A stretch of DNA of 64,000 bases from Amphiscolops sp. MND2022 (Eukaryota). The position numbers and the translations under genes were made by a program. The notes under the pieces are model-generated. The model had not been told where the DNA came from. It was given only the letters and a program-made list of their open reading frames with translations, and searched no databases. The stretch lies in NCBI GenBank assembly GCA_964187785.1, contig OZ076409.1, positions 5,706,001 through 5,770,000 of the forward strand, read 5' to 3'. Shown in pieces: positions 1,752 through 58,589 of the stretch; position 1 is the stretch's first letter; each line of letters begins with the position of its first letter.

Positions 1752-2915
1752 ATATCGCTTTCGATAGATTATCTGTATTGTTTCTTGCAAAACTTAATGA
1801 TACCTCTTTCCTACTTTAAACTAAAAAAAATGTAAATACACTACCTTCTGAAAATAAATTACTATTTTATTGTCATTTATTAATGAAGGAAATACAGTGT
1901 TTTTTTTTTATATCCAACGGATCCTCATATCGATTTTTTCAGTCCGGGTTCAATTCGATAGCGGAAGAAAATTAAAACGACCTTTTTTGAAATAAGTATA
2001 ACAACTGTTCGCGTGTATTCCACAACCAATTCAAATGTCGACGGACTATGTTCCTGCATACCTTTGATTCTGACGTTGAGTGTTCTCGTGCAATTGCTGT
2101 TCAGTATAAAATCTTTCAGACTGGACGTTGAAGCTTAGACAGCAATACATATGGTCTGAATGATTGTTTTCAGTGCCTCATGTGTTCATAAAAATGTACC
2201 AGCTAAAACTTGTTTCGGGTTTCGTCGAGTTTCTAAATCTACTCATTCTGTGAAATGGAAATTCAGAAAAAGAGCATCTTGGTTGAGTGGCAAACCCAAC
2301 GTTTGGTAATCCCGAACGTTATGAATATAAATTGGAAGATATTAAAATTCTATACGAGTATACAGTGTCTACATATTTGTCTAGACATATATACGGATGA
2401 CGGGGTGAGTGGAACAATATGAAAGAAAAAACAGGCATATCATCCGACCGGTTAATAGAAAATTGTAGCATCATATGTGAAAGGTTGAATTTTTACATGG
2501 TTTGTACCACCACCAGAACGGATAATGAAGTCTTCACCCTCAGTTGTTCCTTAACTAGACCGAATACTGCAGCTGTGTTAGCGTCTCTTTACAGTACTCC
2601 CGCTCCCGTTCAATCGTAACAAAAACTATAAACAACCAACAAACTGTGATGCCATGATGCTAGTCCTCAAAGATTCTACAAATCTGAAATACTCTGAACT
2701 TTTAACCAAAGTAATTAGTAAAGGTAATCTCATTTGAAAGCTAATTATTCTAGAAGAAACTTCACTTAATATATCCTGTACCAAGCTTCTTAGATTCATC
2801 CTGTTGCTGTCACATTGTTAATTGATGAAACCTACCCTAGTTAATAGAATATATCTACTCGGAGAAGTTGAGAATTCATCCTGACGATCGGTCTTCTCTC
2901 CAGCACTTCAAGAAC

Positions 2916-3055
2916 TGAGATCTCAGAAACAGATTGTACTTAGACCTAGCTAGCTATAAGGTAAAAGTAAGACGACTCTGCTGTTAAAATCTTAGACTTC
3001 TTATGTCCGTAATAAAACAACTAAAAGAAACAACCACCACACTTTTAACAGCTCA
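2916..3055 (+). repeat. 5' LTR of element A
   Basis: Matches 19417-19555 with about 4-5 differences; contains TATAA and AATAAA. The start could lie up to 5 bp further left because GAAC precedes both copies. Confidence 0.9.
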
Positions 3056-3057
3056 AT

Positions 3058-3070
3058 TGGTGCGACCAAG
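3058..3070 (+). promoter_or_regulatory. Primer-binding site of element A (tRNA not assigned)
   Basis: TGGTGCGACCAAG starts 2 nt after the terminal CA of the LTR. Confidence 0.75.
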
Positions 3071-3209
3071 AAAATTCTTCTTTCTCTCCCATTCATTTCA
3101 CAACTCTACAATTGTTTTACACCTTTTCTCGACTTTCTCATCCGATATCTCTTTGTTCGACACACAGTTTCTTTACCTCTCAATATAGCCTACCGTTATT
3201 AACTTCAAC

Positions 3210-3475
3210 GTTGCAACCAATTTCCACTAGAAATTGATTCGTGTTGCTATGGTTCTGACTGCGTCTCCTCACGTAATTCCTGTCAGTTACATTTCTTGGT
3301 TCTGACTGCGTTTCTCAACGTAATTCCTGTCAGTCATATTTCTTGGTTCTGACTACGTTTATTCGCGTAATTCCTGTCAGTTAAAATTTTTTCGTTCCAA
3401 CCACCTCTGAGTGAATTCGTGTTGGCTTTCTCTCTTTCTTCCGTTCCAACCGCAGACGTGCGATACGTGTTGGCC
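3210..3475 (+). promoter_or_regulatory. Array of six bulged stem-loops in the 5' leader of element A
   Basis: Units start at 3213, 3255, 3302, 3349, 3397 and 3446. Each has a 5-bp outer stem, an inner hairpin and a 3' bulge AT(T/A)C(G/C)T. Confidence 0.7.
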
Positions 3476-3782
3476 CTTCTACAGTGCTATCAAGCGATAC
3501 CTGCTAGTAAAAAAAGTTCTTTGGTTCTAGCCGCTCGGATCAACTTTAAAGTTGGCACACCTACATAACATATATTTCTTATATAACACCATTATAACAC
3601 TTTTCTTTCTGTCTCTTCTATAGTACAAACATCCTACAAAACTCTTTCAAAACAAGTTTACGGATCCAAATACATAACAATTAAAATATATAACAAATAT
3701 ATTAAACTTCATTTTTTCTACATTTATATATTACACTTTTATACAACCTCTTTGACACACTCTTAATTGAACTCTATTGTAC

Positions 3783-4156
3783 ATGCCGTCATCTGTAGAC
3801 ATTGTAGTCAAACTCATTGTTTGCTTTTGGTTCTCTATTGCTATTGATGCCGGTCTTGCACTTTTTCTTGACAAATTCATAATTTCGTTCATACCAAAGT
3901 TTTAAAGTACATCCTTCTCCTTCTATGTTAACAAGTAGAGTACTACCTCTTTTTGGACTGCTTAGTATTTACCATACTTTTTACACTTATCCAATATATA
4001 CAAAACCCATTCCTTCTTTTCATAAGTACAGCACTTACAATCTTCTTACAAGTTGTATTCACAGACCAAATCTTGCCATGTATTTCACAATTCAATACAA
4101 AATATCTTCTTTTCCAATACATCTGTCCTTTATGGCAATCTTATTATACTAACTAA
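3783..4156 (+). pseudogene. Putative small hydrophobic ORF upstream of gag (ORF0), disrupted
   Basis: ATG 3783 frame (MPSSVDIVVKLIVCFWFSIAIDAGLALFL...) joins the 3953-4156 frame via one frameshift near 3900 and one stop at 3929. Confidence 0.35.
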
Positions 4157-4171
4157 ATCTTACACCATATA

Positions 4172-7100
4172 ATGCTTCCTACTCCATTTACATTAAATAC
4201 AGAAAAAAGACAAAATCGATCTCTCATACAAGATGTAACACCGTTTCTGAATAACATCATTTTTCAGTACACAAATCCACTTCCATTTGAAACAAAACCC
4301 CATAGAGTACATACTATTGCATTAGCAAGAGAACATTGTGATTCTTATCTTTATTACATTCGATAATAAAACACTTGAAATAACATCATCACAAACCCCT
4401 TTTCAAGTTATTTTTAACCCAGTTAAAGGAATAAACTCTGGAACATTTTATGGAACCATTCACCCACAAAACATTAAACTTTCTATACAAGATGTTTTCC
4501 GCACATATATGCACAAACTCATCGAATTCAATGAAAACCAAGACACACCACTCTATTGTCCTTCTCACCTACAAGAACTAAAACACAGATCTGAACATTT
4601 CGAGGTCCCTGATCTTGACACAAAAGTTCAAAGACATGATAACCCCTATTATTGGCTACAACGAGATATTTTACAAATAAAAAGTTTTCATAACAGATTC
4701 TTTAACAACATTATTCTCACGGATGACACTATACCTCAAGTCAAAATTTTTACCCAATTCCTATTAAAGTTTCTTAGATTTAACTATCAATTACTTTGGG
4801 AACAAAAAGATCAACAAGCTTACATTAACTTCCCTCAAATATTAACACATATAGAACTTTTACCATACATTATCAAAAATGAAAACAAACATTTACAATA
4901 CAGAGATCTAACAGCATTCAATGTTACACATTTTGAACAAATAAACTTAGATCACAACTTTTTGCTTGAACATTCTGAAACATCAGATAACAGACCTTTT
5001 ATTACATCCGATACTTCTCATGAAACAACTTCTGAAGAACAAACTTCTAATGTTGAACCTTTATATACGAGACAACAATCAGAACAATCAGAACAAGAAG
5101 CCCTTGCTAACCTTTTTCAAAATTCTGATCCCCCTCAAGAACAACCACTATACCCACCACTATCACAAATCTCAGATATACAACAACCAAATCCTTCTGA
5201 AACAACTACAATTCACGATATATCAGAATTCTCTGAAGACACAGTACAAAATACACGAAATTTTACAAAAACTGATGATTCAAATATCATAATAATTCCT
5301 ACCCACAATATTACACAAAACGAATTTAACAACCAAAATCAAGACAACACTTTCACTACCAATCCAGACAATACCTCTGTTTTATCTACATCCAAAACTA
5401 ATATTACACAACCTTCTCAGACACAAGTACCAACTCCTCGAAACTATAATCCACCTCCTGTTCCACCTCAATTCTCAACTCAGATAAACACCCATAATTC
5501 TCCTCAACAAAGCTCATCAAATACACACCATATTACACAGAACACTAATACAGTACATTTTCAAACACCAACCCCACCATCACCTGCTGAAATACATACT
5601 TCAACTTATTTTCCAGCTCAAACTAACCCAGTACCAACTACACAACCTACATTAAATAATAACACCATTCATTCCAACCCATCCTTTAATTATACCACTG
5701 CCAGACATCTTTCTCGACCTCCATTACAAACCATATTAACTAATCCATTATCGTACAGTCTTACCAGTACTAATCCAGAACATACACAACAATCTCAGAT
5801 AAATTATAACACACCCAATCCATTAAATACTCTTTCTTCTCAACATACGTCTAATACAATCACACCTACATTACAAACTTCCCAATTTCAAATACAAAAT
5901 CCTCCTTCAACAACAATTAGAACCAACCCTCACTTTCATAACACTTCTACTACTTCCTTAACTAATATTTCAAATAATCCTACTTACAATACTACACAAC
6001 CATCTACCGTATCTTATAATACTATGTCACACCCAACATATATTAACTCTTCTACTTCTATATCGGAACCCTTTTGATGGACTAAATCATAATTATACAC
6101 CTGAAGAATATTTACAACATATTGAGGCACGTGTTACATTCTCCTTAGGTTTACAACCTACATCAGAACATGAATATAAACTTTGGCACGCTCGTCGCAT
6201 GGCTTTCATACAATGCTCTTTAACAGGTACAGCACTTAGCTGGTACATTTGTTTAAACAACACCTATAAACATGATTGGCACGCTTTTGTACAAGCTTTC
6301 AAAAAACAATTTTCCTCACAAAAGAACGCTTATTATGCTCAAGTTGAAGCCCTTAATTTAATCAAAAAATACATCGAAACAGTACGTCAATTTGCACTCA
6401 AAGTTCAACAGCTGGTTGAAAAAGGCTGGTGCAATGAGAATGCATCCACTATTAACCTTAAATGTAATGAAATCTTTACAAAAGGACTTCCCAAAAATCT
6501 TAAAGACTTTGCAAACAAAAGGCAAGTAAAACACACTTCCACTGTTTTAGAACCTTCAATTCCTTTTCATACATTAGTAAAATTTGTTGACGCTGAAGAT
6601 ATTGCAAACGACAAAATCAGAACACATGATCTTGCACTTGAAATAAACAATATTACAAAACAGTTGAACACTCAAACTCTTGACCCTTCATCTCAAGAAC
6701 AACTTATGTTTACACAACCCAAAGATCCAAATAACAAAAATAAACCTGCATATAAGAAATATTGCTCATACTGTCATCGAACAAATCACTCCATTTCTGC
6801 TTGTTTCAAAAAACAACGAGATGATGAAGATAAACGAGAAGCATATGCTTGATCTAAATCTCCACAAAAATCTTTTGTACAATACTTCCGTTCTCCTTCA
6901 AACGATAGAACAAAACACTATGATACTCGATACCGAAGTCAAAGTACCTCAAGAGACAACTCTTACAAAAAAAACTACTCATAAAATCGATACCGTTCTA
7001 CATCTAGAAGTAGATTTAGTTACGATAAAAGTACTACTCGTCCACATTACTCTACATCACGATATGATACATACAAACGTGATTCCCGGTCCTACCGTTC

Positions 7101-10100
7101 TCTTTACTGATCTTCATACAGATCCCCATATCGACACAACTCTCGTCCTAGATACAGATCACGCTCCTATTCCAGAGACAACAAATTCACAAAATATACA
7201 AATTCATACAGACCACCTTCAAGACCAAGAGACTCTAGATTTTCTAGATCTCGCTCACACTCCAATTCCAGAAACAAAATTAATATGATACAACAACAAG
7301 ACCAATCTGACCCTATAAAATTTGAAGTACATATGTATCACCCAACAGCAATGGCAAATGCTGTCACACCTACAAGTTGGTTTTATACATTATATGTACA
7401 TACACCATCAAGTATAGTACAAAGAGACAACCCATCTAGATTGGAAATTGCATTCCTTCTAGATAGCGGTGCTTCTATTTCTGTATTAAATTACCCAACA
7501 TACATAACATAATTCGACCAACTCGAAATTCCAAAACATTTAGCGTTGCAAACCAAACTGAAATTCCTATTTTACATTATGCAAATACAATTTTGAACAC
7601 CACTATTGACGAAAATTCTCGTTTCTTTTCAGTACCTTTTGCAGTAGCTGATATCAAATACAACATCCTTGGTACACCATTCTTTGAAGATAATGTACAA
7701 AACATAAACATACAAGACTTTACACTCGAATTCAAATATCAATCAAAAACACACCCAAATTATGCAAAGTTCACAACACTCCTATCTAAAGACTACCCAT
7801 ATTTCTCTTACGTTTATAGAATTAATTCAAAGACTCAAATACGCCTAAAACCCAAGTCTCCAAAGTTTGCTTATTTTCCAATTAAAAATTATCATAACCT
7901 CCATTTTACAACTACTCCACAAAACCACTTCTTCCCTTCAGTACCTCATACCTATTTTGCTACTAAATTTCGTACAAATTTCAATTTTATTGAAGTATTC
8001 ACTGATGACAAACCAGATATCTGTGCAACTATCATCCAAAACACCTCAAAACATGTTGCAACACTGCCTACAGGACAAATTGGATACATTGAAGTTCCAA
8101 TTACTAGTGAAAAAGCCAAACTCTTCCAAGTTAATGATATTAACACTTTAATACAAAATGTTACTCATACCTACCATCCTGAAATCACTGAACCAGTTCC
8201 ACAAACTAATTATATCGTACAATACGATGATCTTTCAACCCCTCCTCCTCAATTCTCTTTACATCAAATTTATATGACAAACGATGACATCCCAAATCAA
8301 ACTTCTCTTTTATATAACGTTCAACCTACTTCTCATACTTCCGAAAAACGCAATTTTCCTTCTCTACCATACACTTCTGAAAATCTGAAATTTATTAAAA
8401 AATTTAACTTCCAATTTTCTGATCTTACAGACCCCGAATACATTACTCTTTGCAATATGTTACTCAAGTATAAAACATGTTATGCAACTCATAAAAACGA
8501 TGTTGGAAAAATTTCAACACCCTTCTGTATTCGACTTAAACCTAACGCTCAACCTTTGACACAACGTCCTTCTAAAGTCCCTATTCACTACCGAGACAAA
8601 CTTGATGTACTTCTCAAAGAACTCGAAAAATAGAACATTATCAAACAAATTGGTTCCTCTCCACAAGACAAACCCGTTTATGGCACAACTTTTTTAAACC
8701 CTCTCAAAATATTCCCCAAGGGAGATACTATAAAATATGTATCAGACGCTCGACATCTTAACTCCAATACAAAACAATCTGATGAATCTTGGCCTATTGA
8801 ACCACTCGCTCCCCAATTAGCACGCGCAAACAAAAAGTACAAATCTGCTATTGATCTTATGTATGCCTATGCACATACACCTCTTGATGAAGACACTATT
8901 AAACTTACCAGTTTCTCCTCAGGAGATAAACTTTTCGCTTTCATACGAGGCTTTTATGGTCTCAAAGGACTCCCAAACTTCTTTACAAAACAAATGTCTA
9001 CCTTCTTTAAAACTCTTATAGAACAAGGTTTTGCTCTTGTCTACATTGACGATATATTACTTTTATCTGACTCTAAAGAACACATGTTCCAACTCATGGA
9101 ACAACTACACATAATTAGTACAAAAAACAATCTTAAACTAGCCCCTGAAAATCCTTTTTCATGCTTCTTAAAGTCAAATTTCTTGGACATGAAATTGGTT
9201 ACAATACAATTAAACCAATCCATTCGAAAATTGCAGCTATTCATAAAATACCTTCTCCAACTGGAAAAGTTGCCGTAATGAGTTTCATTGGTGCACTCAA
9301 TTTTTACACCAAATTTATTGAAAAACTACATATTAACCTCAAACCATTTTACGATCTTTTACATGAGAACACTCCTTGGAAATGGACAGACGAACACGAA
9401 AGTCTCTTCCAAAAACTTAAAATGTCTCTCACTTCTGAAACAGAACTTACAATACCAAATACAAAACATCCATTTTTCATTACAGTTGACGCTTCCCTTA
9501 TTGGATTAGGCGCTGTCTTATTCCAATTAAATGAACAAAACAAAATGAAAGTTATATCGTACAACTCTCGTATACTTAACCCACAAGAACAAAAACTCTC
9601 CACACTTGATAGAGAACTTCTCGGTATAGTACATGCTCTCCAAATTTATGAATTTCTTTTCATTGGTTCTCCCCATCCAATACACATTTTTACTGATCAC
9701 AAACCTTTATTACATTGTTTTTCAAAGAAAGGTAACCTTAGTCCTCGTTTCTATAGAGCTCAAATGCAATTACCAAAATTTTTGAAACTTAAAATAATTC
9801 ACACTCCTGGAAAAAATCTCTCTATTGCCGATATGTTAAGTCGCTCTTTTACAAAAGCTGAATTACAACTCAACCAATTAAAACATAAACAACTTCCACC
9901 TCAAATTGATTTTGCACTTCTACAAAATAACACTCTTAAACCTGTACATTACTTAATTAAACATGAAGAAATCTTACCTCATCAAAAACATGACTCTCAC
10001 CCAATTCTCGCTGAATATGGTACAGACCAATTCTCTATTCGTATCAATGATAAAGGAAATGACATTGTTGTCAAACCGTTACAACCTTTCTCATTCAAAT

Positions 10101-12255
10101 CTTTAACTCCTTTCCAAACCAAGTTCATCATATATATACCAGATTTCCAAAATCTGACTCTTCTTTCCTACATGACACAACATTACAAACAGAAAACTAT
10201 TCTACTGTTAACCAATTAACCCCAAAAACCTCACAAAAATCTGTTTCTGCAAAAAATGTACAACCAAATCTACCATCTCTCACACATTGTCCACAGATTA
10301 TACCTTTCTATTATACATCATTTTTTAAGTACAAAAACTATTTTCAAGGTTTTTTCCTCCCCGATGACTATTCAATAGACATAACAACACTTCAACAACA
10401 ACAATGCCAAGGCCCGGTTCTTAGAACTGTTTATTCTTGGATCATAAAAAATGAAAAACCTGAATCTCTAACACCACTTATCATGGCACTCCTTTTCTAC
10501 ATGCTTATTACAAAAGATTTTCAGAACTTTTTATAGATGACTACACAAATCTTATTAGCCTTTACACTAAACACCCTACTACTCTAAACCAATCTTTTAC
10601 TCCAGATTTTGTACGCGCTACTATTCGAATATGTCTTCCATTTCGACTCTTCAAAACTGTTTTTAACAAACTTCATGAACACTCACATACAGGCATCAAA
10701 ATCACATATAACACATTCGCACAATATTACCACATTCCATTTGTTGAAAAATGGCTTTCCATTTTTATACATGACTGTATTGAATGTCAACGCAATAAAC
10801 ACTTCAACATGAAAATTCAAACTGCTCCTACACAATCCTTTTCTGAACATGCTCCATCCTTCAAATACCGCATTTCAATGGACACTAAAGGACCTATTAA
10901 TCCTCCTTCCCACAACAAATCATATATAAATGTAATAAGTGACGCTTTCAGTCACTTTGTTGTTACAGTACCCATCAAATCAAACAACGCAAAGACTGCT
11001 ATCAAAACTTATCTCACCATTGGATTATTAAATTTGGACAACCTATATATCTTGTCACTGATCGTGGATCAGAATATGTTAATAAAGAAATGGCACACCT
11101 TCGTACACTTATGGGAATTCGTCACTCTTTAAGAACAGCTTACTCTCCTTGGACAAATGGCCTTGTCGAAGTACAAAACAGAAATCTTGGTACACATCTA
11201 CGAATGTTCTTACATGACACACCTAAAGATTGGGCATTCCAAGTCCATATGTACGCTTATGCACATAATTCACAACCACTTTCAGAACTCAGTATTTCTC
11301 CTCATGAAATTGTTTTTCACACCAGACCCAGAATCCCCCTTATACGTTTGATTTAAATCTCAACCGAAACACCTCTAAAACATGTATTTCACGCTATTGC
11401 TCTCAACTTCCAGAACACTCCCACTATGATAAATCCGATCTTAACCCATTTTTTAATAAAACACTTTCAAAACCCATTCCACATTGGTTTCTCGCCGTAG
11501 AAACTGCTATATTACAAATTTATTCCACAGTATACGAAAACACTTTACGAAAAATCAATTCACACGCATACATTACGAAAACATACCACGAAGGTAAACC
11601 CCTTCCTATTGGCACCTTTGTTTTAAAACGCAAATTCACACACGTATATTTTTCTGACAAACTAAAACCCCTTCGGATTGGACTATACAAAATTATTGAC
11701 AGACTATCAGATGTTACATATGAACAACTTGCACAAGATGGCTCTACAATACATGTTCATAAAAATCATTTAATTCCATATTATCCAAAAGAACCACTCT
11801 TATATCCACCTTTGCGTAGTTTCATGCGCTTTTCAGACTCAACTCAATTCCAAATTCCACAACCTACCAAATATGCAAACAGTGATTCTTCCCCTTTCAA
11901 CTCAGACGAATCCTCATCAGACGAAGATTCTCAAACATTCATGACACCAACCACAACGGATAATTCTTCTCAAACATTTGTGACACCATCATCATTTAGA
12001 ACGTCCAATCAAAATACACCATCTACAACATCCAATGACAAGTCTTTAACTTCCTCAACCAATGACAACTCCTTATATAAACACATAATTAACACCCCTC
12101 ACACTAATATCTCTAGTGACAGATCAAGACACCCTTCTAATAACCAAACAACTTCACTTCCTCCTCTAATTGACAGAACTACTAAAACTACTTATAAACT
12201 ACAACAACAACCCAAATTAGATTACAGACTTTTTATTACACCCTCAAAACTGTAA
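4172..12255 (+). pseudogene. Element A gag-pol polyprotein (capsid, CCHC, RS-rich segment, protease, RT, RNase H, integrase); many stops and frameshifts
   Basis: Gag core LTGTALSWY; knuckle CSYCHRTNHSISAC; LLDSGAS; YIDD; VDAS, RELL and TDHKPL (RNase H); ISMDTKGP, TDRGSEY and NGLVE (integrase). Confidence 0.92.
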
Positions 12256-12304
12256 CCTCATTATTCTATCCGCTGGCTCACTCAAAACTAGTCACTACAG
12301 CTGA

Positions 12305-13582
12305 ATGCAAGATAACCAATAACAAGTTATCTCAAGATAACCTGTTGAAAACATTTCAAGAATCCTGGATTCTTCCTCTGATATATCTCCATCAGCTCCA
12401 AGTATTCCTTCTACTTCTGAATCTTCAGTATCAAACACTACAAACTCTAGTAATGTAACTCCTACTACTCCTTCTAAAAGACCAAGATCATACGTTTCTG
12501 AAACAACATCTTCATCACTCCTTCATAGACCACCTATAACTGAAATACCTATAAACACTCGTACTCAACAAATTCCTATTAACACTCCTATAGTACACAT
12601 ACCAAACCCTGAAAGTCTTGAATAATACGTAAATTACAAACATCCTACAGCTATCAAAACTGTTAGACTACAACCTCAGCTCAATCTTGTACAAATCCCT
12701 GATACTGAATATACAACATTACCTTCACTGAAATTACCATCAGAACTTAGTACTACTCCTTCAAAACTTTATCCACCATTAAAACCTCTTCGGAAACCTT
12801 CTACATCACTCTCAAATCTCTTAGACAATATATCAGAATACACTCCATCACAAGATACAACAGGCTCACTTTTTGTACCACACCATAGATATAATCTTCG
12901 AGATCTTCCTTCAAGAAGACTTAGTACAGACACTTCTACACTTAATCTATCTGCTCTTTCTAGCACTTCTACTTTAAGACTCCTACGACAACACGCACAA
13001 CCGTTGTCTTCTGAAAAAAATTCTTCTGACTTTATACCTTCTCCATATTTTACATCTGGTTTTGACACCGCTTCTCTACTTTCCTCAGACGCTCAGACTG
13101 CATTCCCTTCCGGAAATCTATTCTCAGAAGTTATAATACCTACTCCTGTCCCCGCACATATTAGAACACCTGAATATTATACTGCAGATCAATTTAGACC
13201 TCCAACTCCAAATTTTGCTGACTACCCACTTAGAGTCGATGGTATAACCATCTACGACCCACAGCACGATCCTAGATTTCCTATCCTTGCAGAACGTTTC
13301 ATTACAAATAAAGATCGCTTATCTCACAAAAGAAAGGAAACACAACTAAAACGCCTTCAGACACCGAATTTAGAACTCAAATTTGAAGTAAAAGTCAATT
13401 TCCAAGGTTTATATCCACATCCAATATTTCACGTCTCAAAGATAGAACATAAAACTTCTCCTGCTCCTTTTGAAGTGATACACATTGATTTTGAACGAGA
13501 CCTCAATATACCTACTATCACATATGGCAAAATCATATTCTGTAACCCATACTCAGGTCTTAAATATACTACCACTTTTTGA
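12305..13582 (+). pseudogene. Element A ORF-X: Ser/Thr/Pro-rich N-terminus plus conserved C-terminal domain; three in-frame TAA
   Basis: ATG 12305 is in frame with ORF 13004-13582. Shares ILDSSS, PSAP, VHIP.P, LYP.L, YNLR, RLLRQHAQP, RPPTPN, LKFEV and NPYSGL.Y with 56997-58469. Confidence 0.75.
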
Positions 13583-16229
13583 ACTCCTTACAACTTCATA
13601 CATAACAATTCTCATACTCTATTCACACTTATTTAACTTTACCTTTTCAATACCCATAACACCCTCTGACACAGAAAACTAGCTTCCATCGGATGATCCA
13701 AATATTACAAATCTTATGGTTTCTCATTATGACTGGGCAAAACAACACAATTTGAGACAGTTTAATTTACTTAATGTAAAACAATGCCTGAAGCTCCTTC
13801 TGACATTAAACATGCAAGTGTTAAAGCCCGTGTATATGTTCGCGCAAAAGCTAAACGCATCAAAGCTTTTAAATGTGTTGCTTATGCAAAGAAAGAAAGG
13901 AAAGTATGCTTTCAAGGCTCCGTAAAATACCGCCGTGTTGATAGAACTGTATGGAATCATAATACATTACCGCTTCCTGTTACTCTTGATCCATTAGAAT
14001 GTAAAAACATTATCAGACATTTAAATGGTACAAATGATAAAATATTGAACAACCTCCATTACAATAAAACTTTCACACTCTTAGAGGACCATTATTTTCA
14101 AGAACGATTGGAACAATATCAAACTCCTTTCACCGTATACCAATTGAACAAAATGTACACAGGTACATTTACATTTATGCCTGCCGATAAAAACTGGATA
14201 TATGACCCTACTCAAAACCCTTATCATAACTGCCCTGCTCATCACCAATTCGAAGTTAACCTAGTTAGTTGGCGATTAGAAATTTCCGAAGTAGAACTTA
14301 CTTATGATGACACATCTAATGACATGATAATAGATGGACATACATTACCCTGCTACTTTGCAGATGGTTTTTGTAAACCCACAACGAAAACCCCTTTTAC
14401 TCTTGTTTGGTTCGATGATGACTGTTGCCTACTTTTCACATTACAAGATTTCATTGGTCGTATGACTAAAATTGAAGATAGATATTGGATTGAAACAGAC
14501 TCTTTTGTACATTCTCCACACTCAATAAAACCGAAAACAACTTCTGGTATCAAAGGTACAGAACATCCCTATGTTTATGCTCCTCATACACAACATCCAA
14601 ATAACCCAAGTCTTTCAAGTTTTCAAGTTTTTCCTACAGCACAAACCTTTTGTGGTAAACCAGACACTCTTTATTCTACACGATACTCAGACCTTTTTGT
14701 TACATACACCGATGGTTTCAATATGCATACAGGACAACCCAATCCTCATTCTATGATTGATGAATATATTTCTGGTAAAATAGTATTGGACACTTCAAAT
14801 AACAAATTTATATTCCCTGCATTAAATGTTTCAAACAATTTTGCTACCATTGACTATGATGCACAAATAAACACGAAAATAGATTACACTATTAACCATG
14901 TTTTTAGATCAATGACAGTACAAGAACTAAATACTGTACATACCATATGTGAATTAGAACGAAATCAACTTCTTACAATACTCGCAATGTCAGTACAAAA
15001 TCCTCAACTTGCTGGTTTTCTTTTACCCGGTAATCGAAGTAATTTCTTATACGTTGAAGGCTCAACCGCCTGGCTTAATGACTGTCCTCATTTTTTATCC
15101 CCTTTATATAAAGCTGATAGATGCTTTGACCGTATACCTATACACTTTAAAGATGCATTAATGTACGTTGATCCTATTACAAGACAAATCTATGACTATG
15201 CTACTCCATTTACATGTGATAATACTCCACGAAATCTTATTGAACTAGATCCTGATTCTGATGATCAAGACTTTTACATTCTTGGACCTGAACCTATTAA
15301 ACGCAAACCTCCACTAATGTTTACACCTTCACAAATTAAAACTACAATACGTCCTAACACTTTTACAGCTCAAGATGCTGGTATATATTCTAATGCAGAA
15401 CTTGACCAATTTTGGAACCGTATTTTATTTTCCAAACATTCTGATTCTACACTTCAATTACTAGGCAAAGCTCTTAGCTATTCTTTCACTTCATCTAATA
15501 CTCCTAAGTATGATGCAGATTCCCCTCAAGATTCTGGTAATCCTTATAATACATTACGTATAAGACTACATGACAAACTCTTGAATTCATCTCCTCTTTT
15601 TACGCCTACATGGTTTTCAGATGCTTTTATTGCACTTTTTGGATACCCTTGTTATATTCTCACACAATGTGGTATAAATTTTTCTACATTTCTTTTTGTA
15701 CAAGCTACTCTTACACTCATTGTCAAACTTTACAAAACAATATCTATTAAAGATAATCTCAAAAATAATATTACCTTACTTAGTTCTATAGCACATGGTT
15801 TTTTAATGTTCTTACAGCACGAATGGTCAATGACCTCAATGAGACTCAAAACAAAAAACCCAAAAGTACACTTTTAAAATCCAAATCCTTAGATAATTTT
15901 ATTGACACTTCAACAAATTTAATTAATCATTCTACCGATGTTACTTCCCCCCACTTTTCTATACTGAACGTCCTAACAAAATTCAATTTCCTAAATTTAA
16001 CTTGTTTCCGAAACGACACATCAATTCTCACCAAAAAACAGCTCCTTTTCCTTTCTCTCCTGTTCAACATCCTCCACTTCCCAATTATACTCATAAAAAA
16101 TTTCATCTGAATGACAATCTAACTACTCAACATGACACTTTAATTAACAATCCTGTCACCTCCAATACGGATACACCAATTAAAATATATTCACGGATAA
16201 ACTATCCTTTTCCTCCTCCATCTTCTTGA
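13524..16229 (+). pseudogene. env: Element A envelope glycoprotein, gB/chuvirus-G-like; disrupted
   Basis: ATG 13524 opens a hydrophobic leader in frame with MVSHYD (stop at 13680). Main ORF 13784-15877 is Cys-rich with a C-terminal TM segment and aligns with 54397-56967. Confidence 0.85.
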
Positions 16230-16500
16230 ACACTCTCTCAGTTTTTTGCAAACTCTCTTCCAGCACACTTGCCTACTACTTCTTTTCACAATTGCTACTC
16301 CTCCACCACTTGAAACCCTTGCAGAAGTTCATCTTCCTCAATCCAATAACACCTCTCTAATCATAACAATCTTCAAACCCTCTTCACCTAAAGTTGATAA
16401 ATCCACTCGTTAGTGTCATTTAAAGTACTTTCACTTCAAAGTGATACGGCCTTTTGGAATAGATAACACTGTGACTGTTGATGTTTTTCTTTTAAACACA

Positions 16501-17829
16501 ATGACACAAGCAGAAATTGATCTACAAACACAGCTTGAACAAGCAACCCCAACAGATCTTATAACTAGACCTCTTTCAAATTATTCTCCTGTTCTCTATA
16601 TCGAGACTTCTGAACAAACACCTCCAATTTTTCTTGAACAAATGGAACACACAAAAATTGAACACGAAAAATCAAAACCTACTCCTTCACAAGATGATGA
16701 TGATCATACACAAACAACACCACCTCCTCCAAAAAAGCGATATGAAATTATGAAAGATCCAATCTTTCTTTCTTCACCAATATACCCTCCTTCAAAACCT
16801 TCAAAAATTTCACTTTGCACGAATTGTGATGATCATTTGATCCCACTTTTTTCTAATGGCGATTTTGTCTTTAAAGCACAACTAATTTTTTTATATATGC
16901 ACCCTACTGATTATTCATTTCACTTATATGACACAAATCAAGATTTCTTCACATCAATTGCCTCCACAATAATGGGTCCATACCAATATTGGCTCGATAA
17001 TGGAGTCAAAATTTTCTCTCTACAATTCAATTTTCTCCGTCCTTCTATCTACGATCTCAAAACAGATGAATCTGATCCATCTTTCCTTTCTATTTCACAA
17101 AAAGCTACTCATCATCAAACATATACTAAATTTCTACAATACACCAAACCACAAAATCACATTTTCGTCAATTACAAATATACATCACCGTTCACAATGA
17201 CAAATATGTACACTCTTGACCACTCTTGTATAACAGGCTATCTTCGAAACTAAGACCCTATAAAACAATACTTCTGTTTGCTTCCGTACAATAATACTTC
17301 ACGTTCACTTATTGTACCTCAAGAATACATCATACATTACCATGACTTTTTGTTGCCTTGCAAAATTCCTACACAAATTGTCAAACCTCTCACTGTCTTT
17401 AAACACCTAGTATCTTCTCCACTTGACGATAAAGATAGAACTTACTATACAGCACTCTACAAGCAAACGTATTTCTACAATGAACTTCTCTTCATTTCTG
17501 CAAAGACTATTCCTTTTATGGTACAAGCTGAACAAAAAACAGAACATAAATCACACTCTTCACCTATAAAAAACGCTCCTGACAAACTTTCCTCTGTACT
17601 GAATAACCGAACACTTCGCGACATGACAAATTTACTTGAACCCCATAAACGAAACTCCTCTGAAACACCTATCACAACACTCACACATATACTCCACTGC
17701 TATGACAGAACACATAAACTTCTTCAAACACTCGATTTAGACTCTCAACGCATCACTCAATCATCCCAAGCGATTCAATCTGCTTTGGAAACTATAACTA
17801 CTCTTTTTAACTCAACTAATTTTCATTAA
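16501..17829 (+). pseudogene. Element A ORF-Y, unknown accessory protein; one internal stop at 17251
   Basis: ORFs 16441-17253 and 17278-17829 share one frame and align with 52638-53945 (TSIAS, FSLQ.NFLRPS.YDL, KFLQY, KYTSPF, IVPQEY). Confidence 0.8.
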
Positions 17830-18245
17830 ACTCTTCTACAGGTAATACAAAATTCTTAATTTTCCTTCTCTGATACACTCTATGATACATCTTTGACACT
17901 ATATCAAAGGTATTTAGATTTTTACATACTTAATCAAAGTGATATCTTGCTTTCTGAATGAAATCTCAGGATTATCTTTAAAGTACATACTTCTTTCCTA
18001 CAGTACATGTCAAAAATAACTATTTATGTCTAAAAACTACGATACAAGACATACAAGACAGTATAGCACAAAACTAAAGATGATACATTTTCGCACCAAA
18101 TCTTGTTGTACACCTTTGACTTGTCATTGCCATTCTTCTTAAACTTCTTTTGTTTTAGAAACATCTATTCTTCTTCCTCCTCCATCCGCATTCTTTCGAA
18201 ACATTTCCACTTCTCTCTCGTCACTATCTTCAGAACCTCGTCAAC

Positions 18246-18696
18246 ATGACTCCCAATGCTGAAACAGAAGACATTATTACCATGACCTCAGATTTCTCAA
18301 AAGTGCACAGCCTCAAAGCCGCCATATTCCACACCATGGCATTTAAACTCTCGCTCGAAATAAACAAAAACAAAATAACTCCGAAATCTCTCATTGCTTT
18401 CTTAAAGGTCCTTTACAATGTCACACAAATAAAGAAAAAAAAATACATTTGATCAATACTCGCGCATTCACCTTGAAGGCCCAAAAATTGCCATTTGCGA
18501 AACGGCGTCCAATGTCGTTTTCGTCTTAAATTCCTCCTTTACTTCAAAGGACCAATACTTCCGTACCGCCCTACAAGAAGCCAATGACGCTTTCAATAAC
18601 ATGCTTAAAGATTTCGGGAATACTCAAAAATTAGAGCTATATGACCCGCTCCAACACCAAGCTCATCCAACTCAACAACATCCTCTCTTGGCATAA
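18246..18696 (+). pseudogene. Element A ORF-Z, ~150 aa; one frameshift in the A-run near 18440
   Basis: After the shift it reads FDQYSRIH, matching FDQYLNIH in 51639-52115; same position and similar size. Confidence 0.55.
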
Positions 18697-19416
18697 ATAA
18701 AACTACTTACATTTTCTCACTCTTCAAATACATCTCATCTTCACTCCTTCATCCTTCTTCGATGATGTCTCGAGATGTGGTTGCTGATCACTCCTCCAAA
18801 GAACTTTGCTGACACTTCTCACTGCTTCACGCACACCCTCCAGATGGTCAACATCATCCATCGCCACTGGGTTCTTCCATCTTGACAACCTGCTTCTGCA
18901 ACTGTCAACTGGTCTTCACAATCGTCACTGCAATGCTGACTTCTTTCAACTTGACTGGTCTTCTCACTTTGCTCCACTGAACTGGACTCAATTCACTTGT
19001 CACGAACTGAACTCGCCGCAATTCATTTGCCAATTTCAAACTCTTTATTAGCCGTAAATGTCAAACTGTATCTTAAAAACTTTATTGTAACTTTAACGTA
19101 TAATCTTATTTATTGTAAATTCATAATATAATCTTAATAACGCATTATCTTATCTAATCTTAATCTTGTATAATCGTACTATAATTACCCCCTCTAATGC
19201 TAAACCCTTACAAATTTTCATCTATAATTATCTTTGTAACCGCAAAATATATCTTCCCAAATTATATCCCCATTGTCATGTGCATAATACATCTATTTAA
19301 CAATTCTATAATCCACATCTTTTACAGAACACAAGTCCTACTTACAGCACAAGAAATTTTCGAAGATTTTTAGACGAAAATTTTTTTTTTACAAAACATG
19401 TTCTACACCTTTGAAC

Positions 19417-19555
19417 TGAGATCTCAGAAATAGATTGTACTTAGACCTAGCTAGCTATAAGGTAAAAGTAAGACGACTCTGCTGTTAAAATCTTAGACTT
19501 CTTATGTCCGTAATAAAACATCTAAAAGAAACAACCACCGCTTTTTAACAGCTCA
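19417..19555 (+). repeat. 3' LTR of element A
   Basis: Direct repeat of 2916-3055. Confidence 0.9.
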
Positions 19556-19572
19556 AAACCAAGTACTTCAAC

Positions 19573-19585
19573 TGGTGCTACCAAG
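19573..19585 (+). promoter_or_regulatory. Orphan PBS-like site of an older related element
   Basis: ...CTTCA-AC-TGGTGCTACCAAG is 12/13 identical to the element A PBS with the same CA-NN-TGG spacing. Confidence 0.5.
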
Positions 19586-20870
19586 TTCGTCTCTTTCTTT
19601 CCAAAATCGTTTTGTCTCTACTAACCAAAATAAATTGGTTCGATATTCAGTACTGGTAGAAATCATCTCTTTGACTTCTCCATTACAAGAAGACCTTCAA
19701 ATAAATTAACAATTTTTTGTAGACTTCTCGCAATTGCACACCTAATAACCCACGAGAGAGATGTGCAATTTTGCGGACAAATTCAGTTACATGTAATAGA
19801 TAAGACGGGGCTCGAAAGTTGTGTGCAATTAGGCAGAGAGTGTGCAATTATTACACGGAGTATACTATATAATCTTTGGTTTAAAAATTGTGGGTCTTTC
19901 CTGAGATCGCAGAAGTCAGTGCGTCGAACGGCTGTAATGAAGAAGTGCCAATCGTACTGTGAAAAAGACACACTTTCCAAATTAACAGTCTGAAGAATTG
20001 CTACAGAATCTTGTGTTGAAAACACCTAAACTCCTTTACAAGTTGTAAGGAATCTACGTTTTTTTAGTCCCAGTTAGTACAAACTTTCTAGAGTTGCCGA
20101 CAAAAAGCAACCCGCTTGTCAGGTTAAAAACGATTTGTGTTCGCTGTGCTCTCCCAATCTTGCTGTCTCTCTCGCATCGCTGTGTTTGTTTCCTTTTGAC
20201 AACGTTAATCTCACTCACAGCTCACAATATCGTCATATTCCACGTCACATCATCTTGAATTACTCACTATTTGCCAAGTATTTGTTGAACGATTTCTTTT
20301 TCTGTTCAGATCATTTCCAAACTACCGTTTTCGACTTGATTCGCATGCCCTCCATTCGTTTCTGCCAATCGTGACTACAGATGTTTATCGTAGTTCAATA
20401 TGCATTAGAAACAGCTAGTGTTTCGAAACATCAATCGTTACTACAGTGTATGACGCTGAACATTTAATAAACTTCATTCAAAATTTCCATCGCTCGGTAA
20501 CAGCTTGTTTGTGATTGGTTAATTAAATTAAACACACAATCAACTTTTCACAAATAGACATTCAAGATTATAAAGAGAATGAAAGTGCTGCTTCGCATAG
20601 CAGCCCAAACTTTCGATCTTAATTACGCGCTGTATGCGAGCGGTGTATGCGGAGGGATTGTTAAAATTCAATGTCAATTTTGGAATTTCGATTGTCTACT
20701 TAGAAAATTCAATCCTTCACCTGATTGGTTCTCAATTTTTGATTGTCGTTTATTAACTCTTCACCGTCATACATTGTATTTTTAATTCAATGACTTTCTC
20801 ATCGGCTGTTTGATGAACTAAAGTTCTGTTTTTGGATTGGACGCCTCAGATGAAGTTTGCTTGCATAATG

Positions 20871-21252
20871 TGTTGTGTACACAATATGATTGGATTAAAA
20901 TAAACAAATAACAAGGCACTTTAGCACAATAGCTTAGCGCGTTCGGTTTCTATTCCAAAGGTCTAGAGTTCGATTCTCAGAACCGGCGGAGTCTTTGGTA
21001 AAAAATTACTAAAATACCGTTTTCCACTAAAATACTCTTTTCGATAATTTGCTGTCTCGAAACTTTAATTTGATTGTCTATATTAGTAAACAACTTTTGT
21101 TATTTTGACAGTTTCTTCATTTATACCATTGTAGCTTTCTGAATTCATATGACACCAGTTGATATTCAATATTGGCACGAGAACAATACAATATTCAGTT
21201 GCTTTCTCTCTAAAAACGAGATGTAGAGACCGGATTCTATAACACTCTTTTA
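20871..21252 (+). repeat. BEL/Pao 5' LTR
   Basis: TGTTG...TTTTA, repeated at 29869-30250. Confidence 0.93.
20915..20987 (+). other. tRNA-derived (SINE-head-like) segment inside the BEL LTR; second copy at 29913-29985
   Basis: A-box-like TAGCACAATAGCTTAG and T-arm GAG-TTCGATT-CTC (B box) at tRNA-like spacing; no good acceptor stem. Confidence 0.6.
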
Positions 21253-21269
21253 TGGTGGCCATAGAGAGG
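21253..21269 (+). promoter_or_regulatory. BEL/Pao primer-binding site
   Basis: TGGTGGCCATAGAGAGG directly after the LTR. Confidence 0.75.
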
Positions 21270-21742
21270 CACGACTTCTTTGGGTAAGGCGGATACTTTC
21301 TTTGGACGCCTGTTGGTTGTTTTAGTCCAATCCTTTCCATTGTTTCTACCTTTCATCTCCCTTATTGGGCTAATTTCTTCAGTAACAGAACAATATTTTG
21401 CAAATACTGAATTGACATATTCACTTTAATGTTGAACGGAAAATGCTGCTGAATGAGAACAGTTCTGGGCAATTCTTCAATGAGTACTTCTGGACCTCTT
21501 CCTTTTGAGAAAACTACTTACCTTTGGTAGTATCTTCTCTTGGAAAATGTCGAAATTAGCTTTAGTGAGTTATTTTCGTTGGGAAGTTGTCACTCTGGTT
21601 GTAATTTTGCATCGTCACTGAAGATAAGAGTCCTCAAATCCTACCAAATTTACCTCCATATGTTCACCCTCAGTATTCAGTCAACTCTGAACCCTCATCA
21701 TCGATTCCACCGAAGCCCGGAATAAACCACCCGAAGCACCGA

Positions 21743-22884
21743 ATGTACCCACCCCCCGAAGATGAATTCATGGTCGTGAGTACCCGAAAAAAAACTTTAA
21801 AAGCTTTGCGCTTCAATTTTAATTTATTTTGCAAAGCGTTTCTTGAAAAAACCAATAACCCGAAGAAACATTATTGTGCTAATAGCTTCGAGACAGCGAA
21901 GTTTGTCAAATTCGAGTCACTTTTTTGTGTTATGTAAAACTTTCAGTTTCTTACGAAATTTGGAAAGGGTGATTGAAAAAAAAATTAAAGTAACAATTTC
22001 CTAAAAGACACAAAATTTTGATACTCTTCTTTCAAAGAGAACTCAAAAAAAAGGTTCAATTCATAATTATCAACTGAAATTCGGCAAAAAAGTTGGACAA
22101 CTGAGTGCTAATTTCATTTTTGCTTCTTGTAAAAAAATTGTCCCGAATTTTCCATGTAAGCTTGTTCCAGTTTGAAAAATTGTTGTATCCGCCCTTTGAT
22201 AATCCGTGTAGCCGAATGAAAAAATCTTGAGAAAACAAAATCAATTTTGCGCAAATTGTTGTAAACAAATCACGTATGGTTTTCATATTGGCTGCTAGTT
22301 CTTTGCACCATGCAATAGAAACGTTAACTCCCGATGAAAAAGAACATTTCAATGACAAAATTTATACCATCCCGGGCCTAAGTCTTAATCCGTTGAGGAA
22401 AAATCTGAAGAAAATTGTCTAAAATTTGCTTTCGAAAGATCTGAAAGATAAAAACAACATTATTATTTGGCATGATGTCCTAAATAACAGCATTTCTCGT
22501 CATAATAGTAACAACTTCTGTGCATTATCAGTGTCCGAATTGATTGAAATTTTGAAAAGCTTTCAGAAAAAACTCAGTGCTCTGGTGTACTGCCACCGCT
22601 TTCGTACCCCCGAGATCTTTGAATCATTGAAAACATTGGAAACCGATCTTGATATCAAAGTATTCAATATAGTCAAAGACTTTATTTCTCCGAAAAAACA
22701 GAAGGATGCCGACCTTTTGAAAAAATTTAAAGCTTTGCATCAAAGCCCTGAGCTTGAACTAAAAAATTTGTACTTTCTGCTCCGTAAAGAGAACGCACTA
22801 TCCTCAATAACTGATAAGAGCCGACCCCAACGGCCAAGTAAGCGTGCCCGTAACGCTGCGAAGAGAGCCGCTGCCTCTTTTTAA
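21743..22884 (+). pseudogene. Degenerate ORF with SGNH/GDSL-esterase-like blocks (LINE ORF1-like) inside the BEL element
   Basis: The frame of 22426-22884 extends upstream through one stop. Blocks VFILAASSL, TIPGLS, IIIWHDVLNN and ALHQ fall in SGNH order, followed by a basic tail. Confidence 0.5.
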
Positions 22885-23297
22885 TCTCAGTTAACAACCC
22901 CCCCCCGCTCCTTCCAGCTGTTGAGACAGTGTCCGAACTTCACTGATCGGTTGAAGTTTCTTCAGCTCTTCCTTCTTTTTTCAGAGTTGTGTCCAGTCTT
23001 GACTGACTGGTTGATACTCTGAAAAAACGTTTCGTCCCTCACCCGCACCATCGTCAACTGACACCGCGTTTCTTCAACGCGACTTTGAGTTTATCGTGTT
23101 CCGTCCTCGTAGTCTGTGACTACTTTTAACTTAAAACAAAAAAATTGCCAGTTTCTTCGTTGAAGCGCTGTAGAAACAGTGTTGTCACCGATAATCACCG
23201 TTCTTTCTGCCACAAAACTTTTTCCTGAACTGTGTCCAAACTTAATTGTTTGATTGACGTCTGCAAAGTAACCCGATTCCCTAATTTTGACAACGTA

Positions 23298-29705: not shown

Positions 29706-29868
29706 TCTGTAAAAACTCTCCGTTTTTGTTCTCGCTTGTAATCGTACCTAACATGAATAAAATGTAACATGTACATCATCGAAAATCCATGTAAACCGTT
29801 TTCCGAAAAAAAAGTTTCCTTTTCAATTCTAATGTTTCTTGCATTCACATCTTCTTGGGCCCGGAGGA

Positions 29869-30250
29869 TGTTGTGTACACAATATGATTGGATTAAAATA
29901 AACAAATAACAAGGCACTTTAGCACAATAGCTTAGCGCGTTCGGTTTCTATTCCAAAGGTCTAGAGTTCGATTCTCAGAACCGGCGGAGTCTTTGGTAAA
30001 AAATTACTAAAATACCGTTTTCCACTAAAATACTCTTTTCGATAATTTGCTGTCTCGAAACTTTAATTTGATTGTCTATATTAGTAAACAACTTTTGTTA
30101 TTTTGACAGTTTCTTCATTTATACCATTGTAGCTTTCTGAATTCATATGACACCAGTTGATATTCATTATTGGCACGAGAACAATACAATATTCAGTTGC
30201 TTTCTCTCTAAAAACGAGATGTAGAGACCGGATTCTATAACACTCTTTTA
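29869..30250 (+). repeat. BEL/Pao 3' LTR
   Basis: Direct repeat of 20871-21252. Confidence 0.93.
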
Positions 30251-49300: not shown

Positions 49301-50381
49301 GATGCTTTTTTGCTTGCGAATACCATGACTTTGTTCATAAATATTGATGGTGAAACCCTTCTCCGTTCAGCGAACAAAACAAGGGGGCCTTTCCAGGCAA
49401 GTATCGACAACTCATCAGATCGTCGACGAGCTGCGTTCGAAAATATGGTACTTGTTGGCGCCAGTCATTTGCAAGACGAGAAACTAAAAGTCGAAAGAGA
49501 CTGATGAAACTTATAACTCAGAACAAATTTTCTCAAGATTTTAGTTGAAAGTTACCACTTTTAGCAAAATGGCCATGTGCCATAAAAGAGCGAACCGCTG
49601 TTTCGAGAAGCACTTATTCAATGACCCCGAAACTTAGCATGTACAAACAAGAGGTATTACCTCAACTTTTAACTTTGAGCTCTCGACCTCGTATCTCCCT
49701 TGGGTTCCGGGCAAGTAGCACCGAACGTGGTGTAAGCCAACCCCTTCAATGCCCAATTTCGTGATACAAGTTCTTATGGGATGATCTCATATGACTTTGT
49801 AGGAAATATAATTCTTTTCGAATTGGTGATCTTTACATTGTGTAAACAAACATTCGGGCCCATCTACTAACAATTATGCCGAATTCACCACATGATACAT
49901 TTATATCACCAATAATTTCATATTTTACTTTAAGTTTAGTTTATTTACACCACAAATTTCGACTCATACTAACTGAAGTATTGTAGACCAGATCTTCACT
50001 ATAACTAGTTAGAGATTTAAACAACTTAATAGCTACTACGTGTCTAATAAACATCTATCTTTACAAGTTTTCGTTAGACGTCAGAGCCAACTAGTCGGAT
50101 TTTTGGTCACAGGACCAATTGTAGAGGAACTGAGGAAAAGTTTATCGGTTGTTTTCAGCAAGAAACTGTCGAACTACTTCGCCGGCATATTGAAAGGCAA
50201 AATTTGCGACATGATGTCTGTGACATGAGAGGTTTTCATTAGAACCAGAGACCTTTTTAGGGATCCTTTTCTAGTCGGTCAGCAGAGCAATTCCGTAGAA
50301 ATGCCATTTTATTAAAACAATCTAAAACAACCATTGACATGGAAGGACGTTGTTTTCGACATAATGTTTCTTTTAATGCAA

Positions 50382-50550
50382 TGTGTGCTGCCTTAATTCT
50401 TAGTAGTGTGGTGGTTATTTTAGAGACTAACTAAGACAGGCTTATTCGAGGTTTATCTAGCTAGATTTCTGATGGTAAGAGTAGAACAAAAAGGAAGTCA
50501 ACCAAATACTGATTATTAACTTTCTCTCTCTGAGGGAGTAGAGACTTACA
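50382..50550 (-). repeat. Probable 3' LTR of element B (~168 bp)
   Basis: Minus strand TGTAAG...GCACACA; shares CTAGCTAG and AACCACCACAC with the LTR of A. The partner LTR is not in the window. Confidence 0.6.
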
Positions 50551-51457: not shown

Positions 51458-51626
51458 GATTGAAGATTGAAGATTGAAGATTGGAAGATTGGAAGGTGGG
51501 CGAAAATGGGTCAGTTGGCGTCAATGAAGTTGAAGATGGGTGCTGGTTGAAGATGGGTGCTGAAGACGGGTGCTGAAGTTGGGTGCTGAAGATGGGTGCT
51601 GAAGATGGAAGATGGGTGCCGAAGAT
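51458..51626. repeat. Tandem repeats in the 3' UTR of element B
   Basis: 7-bp GAAGATT units, then 13-bp TGAAGATGGGTGC units. Confidence 0.85.
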
Positions 51627-51638
51627 GTCAATTTGAAG

Positions 51639-56967: not shown

Positions 56968-56996
56968 TGTTAAAGTACCAGTTAATATTTCTATAG

Positions 56997-58469: not shown

Positions 58470-58589
58470 TTATTTTCGAATTTCTTCCGTGTATTATCAC
58501 TTGTGAAATACTTTTCATTCAATTCCACATTAATCTTCAAGCTTTCTCTTCCAAAAAATTTTTTATGTATTTTTCCTGTATTCCGTATT

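Follow-up and report, generated by a model that had tools for sequence, protein, structure and literature searches.

The leader of an env-bearing Ty3/gypsy-like provirus was found to carry six short hairpins in tandem, each with an unpaired stretch of six or seven nucleotides on its 3′ side. The array is real, conserved, and structured, and in kind it belongs to the leader cis-RNA elements of retroelements, with a function that we infer. Selection for RNA structure on the sense strand is likely. We propose, by analogy and with a probability of about 0.4, that the hairpins would act in cis as a multivalent docking platform for Gag/NC in packaging and perhaps in dimerisation. The analysis covered a window of 64,000 nt (the whole stretch of DNA at hand) together with searches of a genome assembly of 1.07 Gb.

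The host of the array is a decayed provirus at approximately 2645-19556 of the window, here named element A. Pfam matches in element A were to Retrotrans_gag (5962-6852), RVT_1, RNase H, an integrase zinc-binding domain, and the env-like Monjiviricetes_fusion (13775-15877). Several ORFs without a Pfam match lie between integrase and env and downstream of env. A second env-bearing provirus of ~18.3 kb, element B, is located on the − strand (window 50384-64000, continued in L031 1-4691); its LTRs of 237 nt (window 50384-50620 and L031 4455-4691) are 100% identical, and its nucleotide identity to element A amounts to 70-73% in pol and env. The frame of element A in which the array lies is as follows.

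2645 to 3055, + strand: 5′ LTR of element A, TG...CA; homology of 30 of 30 genomic copies stops upstream of ~2645, and the match to the 3′ LTR ends at 3056.
3058 to 3070, + strand: primer binding site (PBS), TGGTGCGACCAAG, 2 nt past the LTR; the word is conserved after the LTR in relatives.
4172 to 6852, + strand: gag, a broken copy; translated from 4172, it agrees with full-length relatives at their N-terminus, and Retrotrans_gag covers 5962-6852.

The limits of the 5′ LTR were deduced from the loss of homology of the copies upstream of 2645 and from the end of the match to the 3′ LTR remnant, which at 19413-19556 shares 96% identity with 2912-3056. The 3′ end of the element (19140-19556) has a counterpart only to the last 145 nt of the 411-nt 5′ LTR. 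The U3 part is missing or different there, and this copy of element A is therefore rearranged or recombinant; a PBS-like TGGTGCTACCAAG is present downstream of the 3′ LTR remnant. TGGTGCGACCAAG was identified as the primer binding site because TGGTGCGA(CC) comes after the LTR not only in element A but also in element B and in 15 of the 16 env-bearing relatives sampled. The PBS word TGGTGCGACC (window 3058-3070; L032-L046) is common to families whose env proteins are only ~50-63% identical. With regard to the primer, ARAGORN gave no tRNA within the window, and a single genomic pattern match was rejected as primer tRNA, its sequence not being a tRNA. The PBS word was absent from the supplements of PMC13524379.

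The gag copy of element A has in-frame stops after residue 64 and is read in the frames 4326-6077 and 5962-6852, with a shift of frame around 5962-6077. The first of these, a 583-codon frame, encodes the N-terminal part of Gag and is joined to the Retrotrans_gag domain in many relatives. The "ORF1" ahead of the gag domain is thus N-terminal Gag itself and no accessory gene of its own. Gag proteins of the relatives comprise 900-1000 aa with one CX2CX4HX4C knuckle and an R/S/Y-rich basic tail; in the protein set P0121-P0240, an S/T/N/Q/P-rich N-terminal extension of ~600 aa, belonging to no known family, precedes Retrotrans_gag. The leader of element A is ~1.1 kb long and noncoding, its 3′ limit being the gag ATG at 4172, and no frame of more than 68 codons overlaps 3100-3600.

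Other features of the window were noted in passing. Upstream of element A, another retroelement is represented by an RVT_1 reverse-transcriptase frame (198-1751; 517 codons; E 2.7e-39). A BEL/Pao element at 20871-30168 is flanked by LTRs of 300 nt with 100% identity and contains one 2158-codon open frame with Peptidase_A17, RVT_1, integrase, DUF1759, and DUF5641 domains. The coding strand is G-poor, with a GC skew of −0.3 to −0.58 over element A (4000-20000) and of +0.25 to +0.38 over the reverse-oriented element B (50000-64000); the BEL/Pao element is without such skew.

The array itself occupies 3210-3473, begins 152 nt past the PBS, and ends ~700 nt short of the gag start. Direct reading of this region bore out the initial annotation in its layout. 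The array lies in the 5′ leader, between the PBS at 3058-3070 and the gag ATG at 4172, and units led by GTT recur every 42-49 nt (starts at 3210, 3252, 3299, 3346, 3394, and 3443; spacings of 42, 47, 47, 48, and 49 nt). The GTT of each unit is followed by a 5-bp outer stem, an inner hairpin of 3-7 bp, and an unpaired A(T/A)(T/A)C(G/C)T of 6-7 nt on the 3′ side. The outer stems had the sequences claimed for them, GCAAC/GTTGC in unit 1 (u1), CTGAC/GTCAG in u2-u4, and CCAAC/GTTGG in u5 and u6; all 30 of their 30 cells pair, every one of them Watson-Crick. The inner hairpins do differ in sequence and still pair, with 7, 5, 6, 5, 3, and 4 pairs from u1 to u6 upon parsing. The hexamer was likewise found unpaired on the 3′ side, as ATTCGT in u1, ATTCCT in the next three units, AATTCGT with one extra A in u5, and ATACGT in u6. 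Common to all units are only GTT, AC..GT, and A..C.T.

3210 to 3247, + strand: unit 1, GTT, outer stem GCAAC/GTTGC, inner stem of 7 bp, bulge ATTCGT; MFE −9.0 kcal/mol, z −3.04, same RNAalifold fold in 13 lineages.
3252 to 3286, + strand: unit 2, GTT, outer stem CTGAC/GTCAG, inner stem of 5 bp with one G·U, bulge ATTCCT; from the single-unit fold and RNAalifold.
3299 to 3333, + strand: unit 3, arms of unit 2 with another loop; from the single-unit fold and RNAalifold.
3346 to 3380, + strand: unit 4, outer arms of unit 2, inner stem TACGT/GCGTA, another loop; from the single-unit fold and RNAalifold.
3394 to 3425, + strand: unit 5, the weakest, GTT, outer stem CCAAC/GTTGG, inner stem CAC/GTG, bulge AATTCGT; z −0.08.
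3443 to 3473, + strand: unit 6, GTT, outer stem CCAAC/GTTGG, inner stem CGCA/TGCG with a GACG tetraloop, bulge ATACGT; from the single-unit fold.

When the units were folded singly, the bulged hairpin was the MFE structure in all six, with energies of −4.3 to −9.0 kcal/mol. In u5, the bulged hairpin is the MFE structure yet makes up only 0.17 of the ensemble.

Several tests against chance were applied. Three of the five pairs of the outer stem are changed on both sides between units. The covariation score of the outer stem was reached by none of 500 shuffles, and three covarying pairs were reached by 19 of 500; after the partners had been slid by 1-3 columns, 0-43% of the cells paired. For the inner stem, the four independent unit types were evaluated by 200,000 shuffles of each interior, and an end-to-end stem of the observed length or longer arose by chance with a probability of 2.1e-4 for u1, 1.4e-3 for u2, 0.062 for u5, and 0.021 for u6. 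The thermodynamic stability of the array was modest, with z-scores of −3.0, −2.3, −2.9, −2.6, −0.1, and −0.7 for the single units u1-u6, those of u5 and u6 being unremarkable. The whole 286 nt showed no excess stability over shuffles (z −0.97 for the + strand and +0.16 for the − strand). Of the six units, TRF detected the three middle ones only, which are near-identical (47 nt x 2.8). A loose generic scan of the window for nested hairpins did not single out the array, which gave 8 matches versus up to 11 in other 270-nt windows (totals for the two strands, 443 and 428). Rfam covariance models gave no match at E ≤ 10 on either strand of 2600-4400, nor did blastn against a phage collection return one. 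The case for the array rests on architecture and covariation, not on energy.

Conservation was followed first among close copies of the leader and then among older lineages. A genome search with the leader gave 2567 first-look candidates, with at least 40 scored matches among them. Thirty close copies were sampled; they are 93-97% identical, and all 30 hold six units. Their variation consists almost entirely of singletons apart from one shared site, 3261, which is G in 8 and A in 22 copies (G·U <-> A-U in unit 2), and covariation among these 30 copies consequently gave no usable signal. Older lineages were represented by leaders upstream of genomic gag matches with 68-100% protein identity to P0214, the probe, which is a Gag N-terminus 67% identical to that of the window. 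Twelve usable leaders and the window made up a set of 13 lineages with 71 units; L049 was off target and was excluded, the spurious regex matches L054 341 and L048 458 are left out of the unit counts, and unit L053 195 was re-cut. The leaders added were of family A only, as against other env classes of the genome such as those with open frames of 908-927 aa. Units were found by GTT plus outer arm with at most one mismatch, so that conservation of these two parts is partly ascertained, and the inner stems and the bulge played no part in unit finding.

The array in the 13 lineages consists of u1, 2-4 middle (CTGAC) units, u5, and u6, making 5-7 units. The 71 units contain 697 pair cells, of which 658 are Watson-Crick, 19 G·U, 8 A·C, and 12 other. 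The non-modal fraction per column was lowest for GTT (0.013), followed by stems with 0.024, the bulge with 0.030, and loops with 0.187 (Mann-Whitney p 1.3e-5 for stems versus loops and p 0.0016 for bulge versus loops); it was 0.083 for the flanking leader between PBS and u1. Among the otherwise variable loops, that of u6 is the exception, as its GACG is unchanged in 13 of 13 lineages. With RNAalifold, the 32 middle units folded into the bulged hairpin, as did the 13 copies of u1; on u5-u6, the arms of which are identical, an equivalent cross-unit pairing was preferred. Compensatory pairs within orthologous units numbered 0 for u1, 1 for u5-u6, and 0 for the middle units, the sole change of this kind among orthologues being C-G -> U-A in u6 of one lineage. 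Four U·G closing pairs also occur within orthologous units. The description of the hairpins as covarying consequently holds between paralogous units, where three of five outer pairs changed, but not within orthologous ones, and an R-scape-type test would probably miss significance on these data. Selection on RNA structure, as originally suggested, fits the finding that stems, bulge, and GTT are conserved in the 13 lineages and loops are variable. The signal across lineages is one of purifying selection on stems, bulge, and GUU.

A further conserved segment adjoins the array.

3484 to 3558, + strand: conserved structured domain right after the array; RNAalifold over 13 lineages gives 22 pairs and −17.0 kcal/mol, with no compensatory changes.

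This domain is predicted to form a long stem, in which an ATTCCT next to a GCTAG/CTAGC stem is left unpaired, and a CAACT/AGTTG hairpin. Variation per column was 0.02-0.12 in the first ~80 nt past u6 versus 0.22-0.43 beyond. The loop of the CAACT/AGTTG hairpin is the palindrome TTAA in the window copy and varies in other lineages.

The weak thermodynamic signal would also suit a short palindrome that was duplicated in tandem and is carried, without any function, by a successful element family; the copies are numerous and, at 93-97% identity, young, and much of their conservation could be shared descent. Against this stands the observation that variation within the same sequences is 3-8 times higher in loops and flanking leader than in stems and bulge. 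Furthermore, four unit types with unrelated stems share one architecture, and arrays of other folds are located at the same position in F4, element B, and F1 (described below). An array free of function is therefore very unlikely in our judgment.

Pairs that vary between lineages bear on the strand on which the structure would act. Among 32 middle units, 18 have A-U, 13 have G·U, and 1 has U·U at pair 2. This A-U/G·U alternation and the U·G closings would be tolerated on the sense strand and would give A·C mismatches on the other strand. The wobble bias comes mostly from one polymorphic position; without it, 6 G·U stand against 8 A·C, as under neutral decay. G content was 0.18 within versus 0.09 outside the array in family A and 0.16 versus 0.06 in F4.

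Su(Hw) sites are located in the 5′-UTR repeats of Drosophila gypsy. The array might similarly act as DNA, being a tandem enhancer, insulator, or chromatin-targeting module in which the potential to form hairpins is secondary. In agreement with this, 30 of the 32 middle units share ATTCCTGTCAG without change, and the number of units, 5-7, differs between lineages. We presume a resemblance of the ATTCCTGTCAG complement to ETS (GGAA) and TGACAG-type sites and of the TTTATC of element B to a GATA site. Tandem repeats are likewise found in the 5′-UTRs of Drosophila errantiviruses, with 307 bp x 2.3 in ZAM and 102 bp x 2-6 in Tirant; the sections of PMC5408687 on these repeats state that those of ZAM bind HP1a and discuss errantivirus repeats as DNA elements in chromatin targeting. 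The array agrees with the errantivirus repeats in that its number of units varies, from 5 to 7 in the 13 lineages. It differs in that the repeats of ZAM and Tirant measure 102-307 bp, whereas the units here are 42-49 nt long, self-complementary, and covarying, a distinction drawn from descriptions. A protein-binding site on DNA predicts conserved words rather than complementarity. However, all three outer-arm and four inner-arm sequences are self-complementary, the words ATTCCT and TGTCAG are absent from units 1, 5, and 6, and the A-U/G·U alternation is permitted on the sense strand only. No conserved protein-binding DNA word was found in all units; the arms differ yet stay complementary. Action as DNA is hence improbable, and an RNA structure selected on the sense strand is the reading pursued here.

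The genome contains many env classes; 5702 first-look candidates were obtained for the env Pfam family, and 16 upstream regions were sampled. Env proteins with 74-81% identity also occur in related assemblies. The leader of element B, just outside the window, carries seven units of 40-50 nt at L031 3885-4218 (− strand), with a conserved (A/G)TTTATC on the 5′ side, an outer stem of 3-4 bp, and variable inner stems. These units are weak (z −0.5 to −1.95), RNAalifold supporting only a 4-bp outer stem with one compensatory pair. In L038, a relative, the last units occur in a higher-order triplication of 162 nt. Family F4 (L036, L039, L040, and L044) has 3-5 units at 74-335 nt after the PBS that fold as three-way junctions; 240 of 240 cells pair, with 5 wobbles and none broken, z ranges from −0.8 to −3.1, and two compensatory pairs were seen, G-C/A-U in 8:8 and 8:7 units. 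Family F1 (L033) showed two hairpins that differ by a compensatory A-U -> G-C change, along with a 113-nt duplication. In F2, F3, and F5 (L034, L035, and L041), neither TRF nor reading of the leaders revealed a tandem-repeat array. Their leaders are short, gag following 41-405 nt after the same PBS, and F3 and F5 have small upstream frames. Because no array was detected in these three families, it was deduced that a leader array is not universal in the clade.

The unit of family A was not recognizable in its sisters. A covariance model built from all six units was run over 234 kb (the window and 17 loci) and recovered the array of the window alone; the leader of element B, for which the initial annotation had recommended an Infernal search, gave no match at E ≤ 1, and neither did the loci of F1-F5. 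Equivalent structures in related families were thus observed in part, as arrays at the same position in F4, element B, and F1, but with other folds, and with none in F2, F3, and F5. Tandem pairs of LTR plus leader, each with its own hairpin array, were seen in L004/L011 (C10, 1.73 kb apart), in L036 (PBS at 3238 and 5177), and in L040 (PBS at 4484 and 5087).

The CCHC knuckle and basic tail of Gag in the relatives make this protein the obvious candidate ligand. According to our proposal, every unit would present GUU in single-stranded form, a helix of 5 bp, a hexamer of the type AUUC(C/G)U left unpaired on the 3′ side, and, as the cap, a hairpin of free sequence. The units would then offer multivalent and partly redundant docking to the element's own Gag via its CCHC/arginine-rich NC part. 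Docking of Gag may mark unspliced genomic RNA for packaging and perhaps help dimerisation, and the array together with the conserved 75-nt domain that follows it could form a Psi-like region. With stems that diverge between units while the fold is kept, fewer repeats might mispair and be lost in reverse transcription; the number of the identical middle units nonetheless varies (2-4). A multivalent platform for an oligomerising ligand fits the uniform display of GUU and hexamer, the free loops, and the tolerance of 5-7 units. Gag as the ligand, the role in packaging, and the fold in vivo are what we infer from these features.

The data that fit packaging are also compatible with RNA export, control of translation, or the binding of an accessory ORF product. 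A real RNA structure could accordingly have another job, as a site for a host export or translation factor (CTE-like or IRES/PTB-type) or as a Rev/RRE-like element bound by an ORF product. Such a role would draw on the same structural and conservation evidence as Gag docking. In addition, the spacers are pyrimidine-rich, several ORFs without a Pfam match lie between integrase and env and after env, and scanning would be impeded by so long and hairpin-rich a leader. In simple retroviruses, however, export elements are located near the 3′ end. The constitutive transport element (CTE) of MPMV, for example, is one long stem near the 3′ end with repeated conserved internal loops. The array may be likened to it, and to multimerised CTEs, in that conserved unpaired sequence is presented on helices and repeated so that one factor is bound several times; it differs, by description, from the CTE as a single long 3′-proximal stem. 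Such another RNA function is possible but rather doubtful.

The initial annotation had also drawn analogies to TAR, a trans-activation element, and to hepadnaviral epsilon, a priming and packaging signal. HIV-1 TAR is located at the 5′ end of R, carries its bulge on the 5′ side, and recruits a viral protein; epsilon, also a bulged stem-loop recruiting a viral protein, templates protein-primed synthesis. The stem-bulge-stem-loop topology is indeed shared, and the likeness is one of this form only. The array begins 152 nt downstream of the PBS and hence lies outside R, and its bulge is on the 3′ side, so that the analogy to TAR breaks down on position as well as on the side of the bulge. That to epsilon is contradicted by the six copies, where one would be expected, and by the tRNA-type PBS (TGG..., conserved in 15 of 16 relatives), given which protein priming from the bulge is not expected. 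Either role is extremely unlikely. Gag docking is retained here as the proposed function.

An extension of Gag docking would regard the array as a family-specific address label, each family presenting its own small fold 3-7 times after the PBS to be read by its own Gag. The label would be a bulged hairpin in family A, a three-way junction in F4, and an internal-loop hairpin in element B, with the number of units tuned by template switching. We consider this extension unlikely as it stands; if it held, dozens of related families could share a genome and a cell without cross-packaging their RNA.

Much is known about packaging and dimerisation signals of vertebrate retroviruses. Those of invertebrate env-carrying gypsy-like elements were not described in the literature checked, and no description of such leader hairpin arrays was found in the literature searched, which is not proof of absence. 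As a candidate recognition unit for Gag, a short repeated hairpin with one conserved unpaired hexamer would be unusually simple and open to testing, and the different folds in sister families of one genome would amount to a natural experiment on packaging specificity. Should the array act as DNA or in RNA export, it would still be a conserved regulatory module of a very abundant family.

Among known elements, element A resembles the env-carrying Ty3/gypsy "errantiviruses" of metazoans treated in PMC13524379 (eLife 2026) in its gag, pol, env, LTRs, and tRNA PBS. The env types given in the main text of that paper are F and gB, in contrast to the Pfam Monjiviricetes_fusion found here, and that main text contains 0 mentions of tandem repeat, UTR, stem-loop, or packaging.

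With respect to the leader itself, the closest comparison is to MuLV Psi (SL-A to SL-D). The array differs from Psi in consisting of tandem paralogous repeats with a conserved 3′ bulge and a variable number, and it has no sequence homology or Rfam match. In both cases, several small stem-loops are located between PBS and gag, and Gag has a CCHC knuckle; like Psi, the array occupies a leader site between PBS and gag, and its structured stem-loops are conserved in relatives. The part of PMC5874298 on the MuLV leader describes GACG tetraloops in SL-C and SL-D and UCUG quartets as high-affinity NC sites. Likewise, the tetraloop of u6 is GACG in all 13 lineages, and UCUG spans the edge between GUU and the 5′ arm in every middle unit and in every F4 unit; in element A, UCUG was observed 4 times versus 1.8 expected, a small enrichment among units that are not independent.
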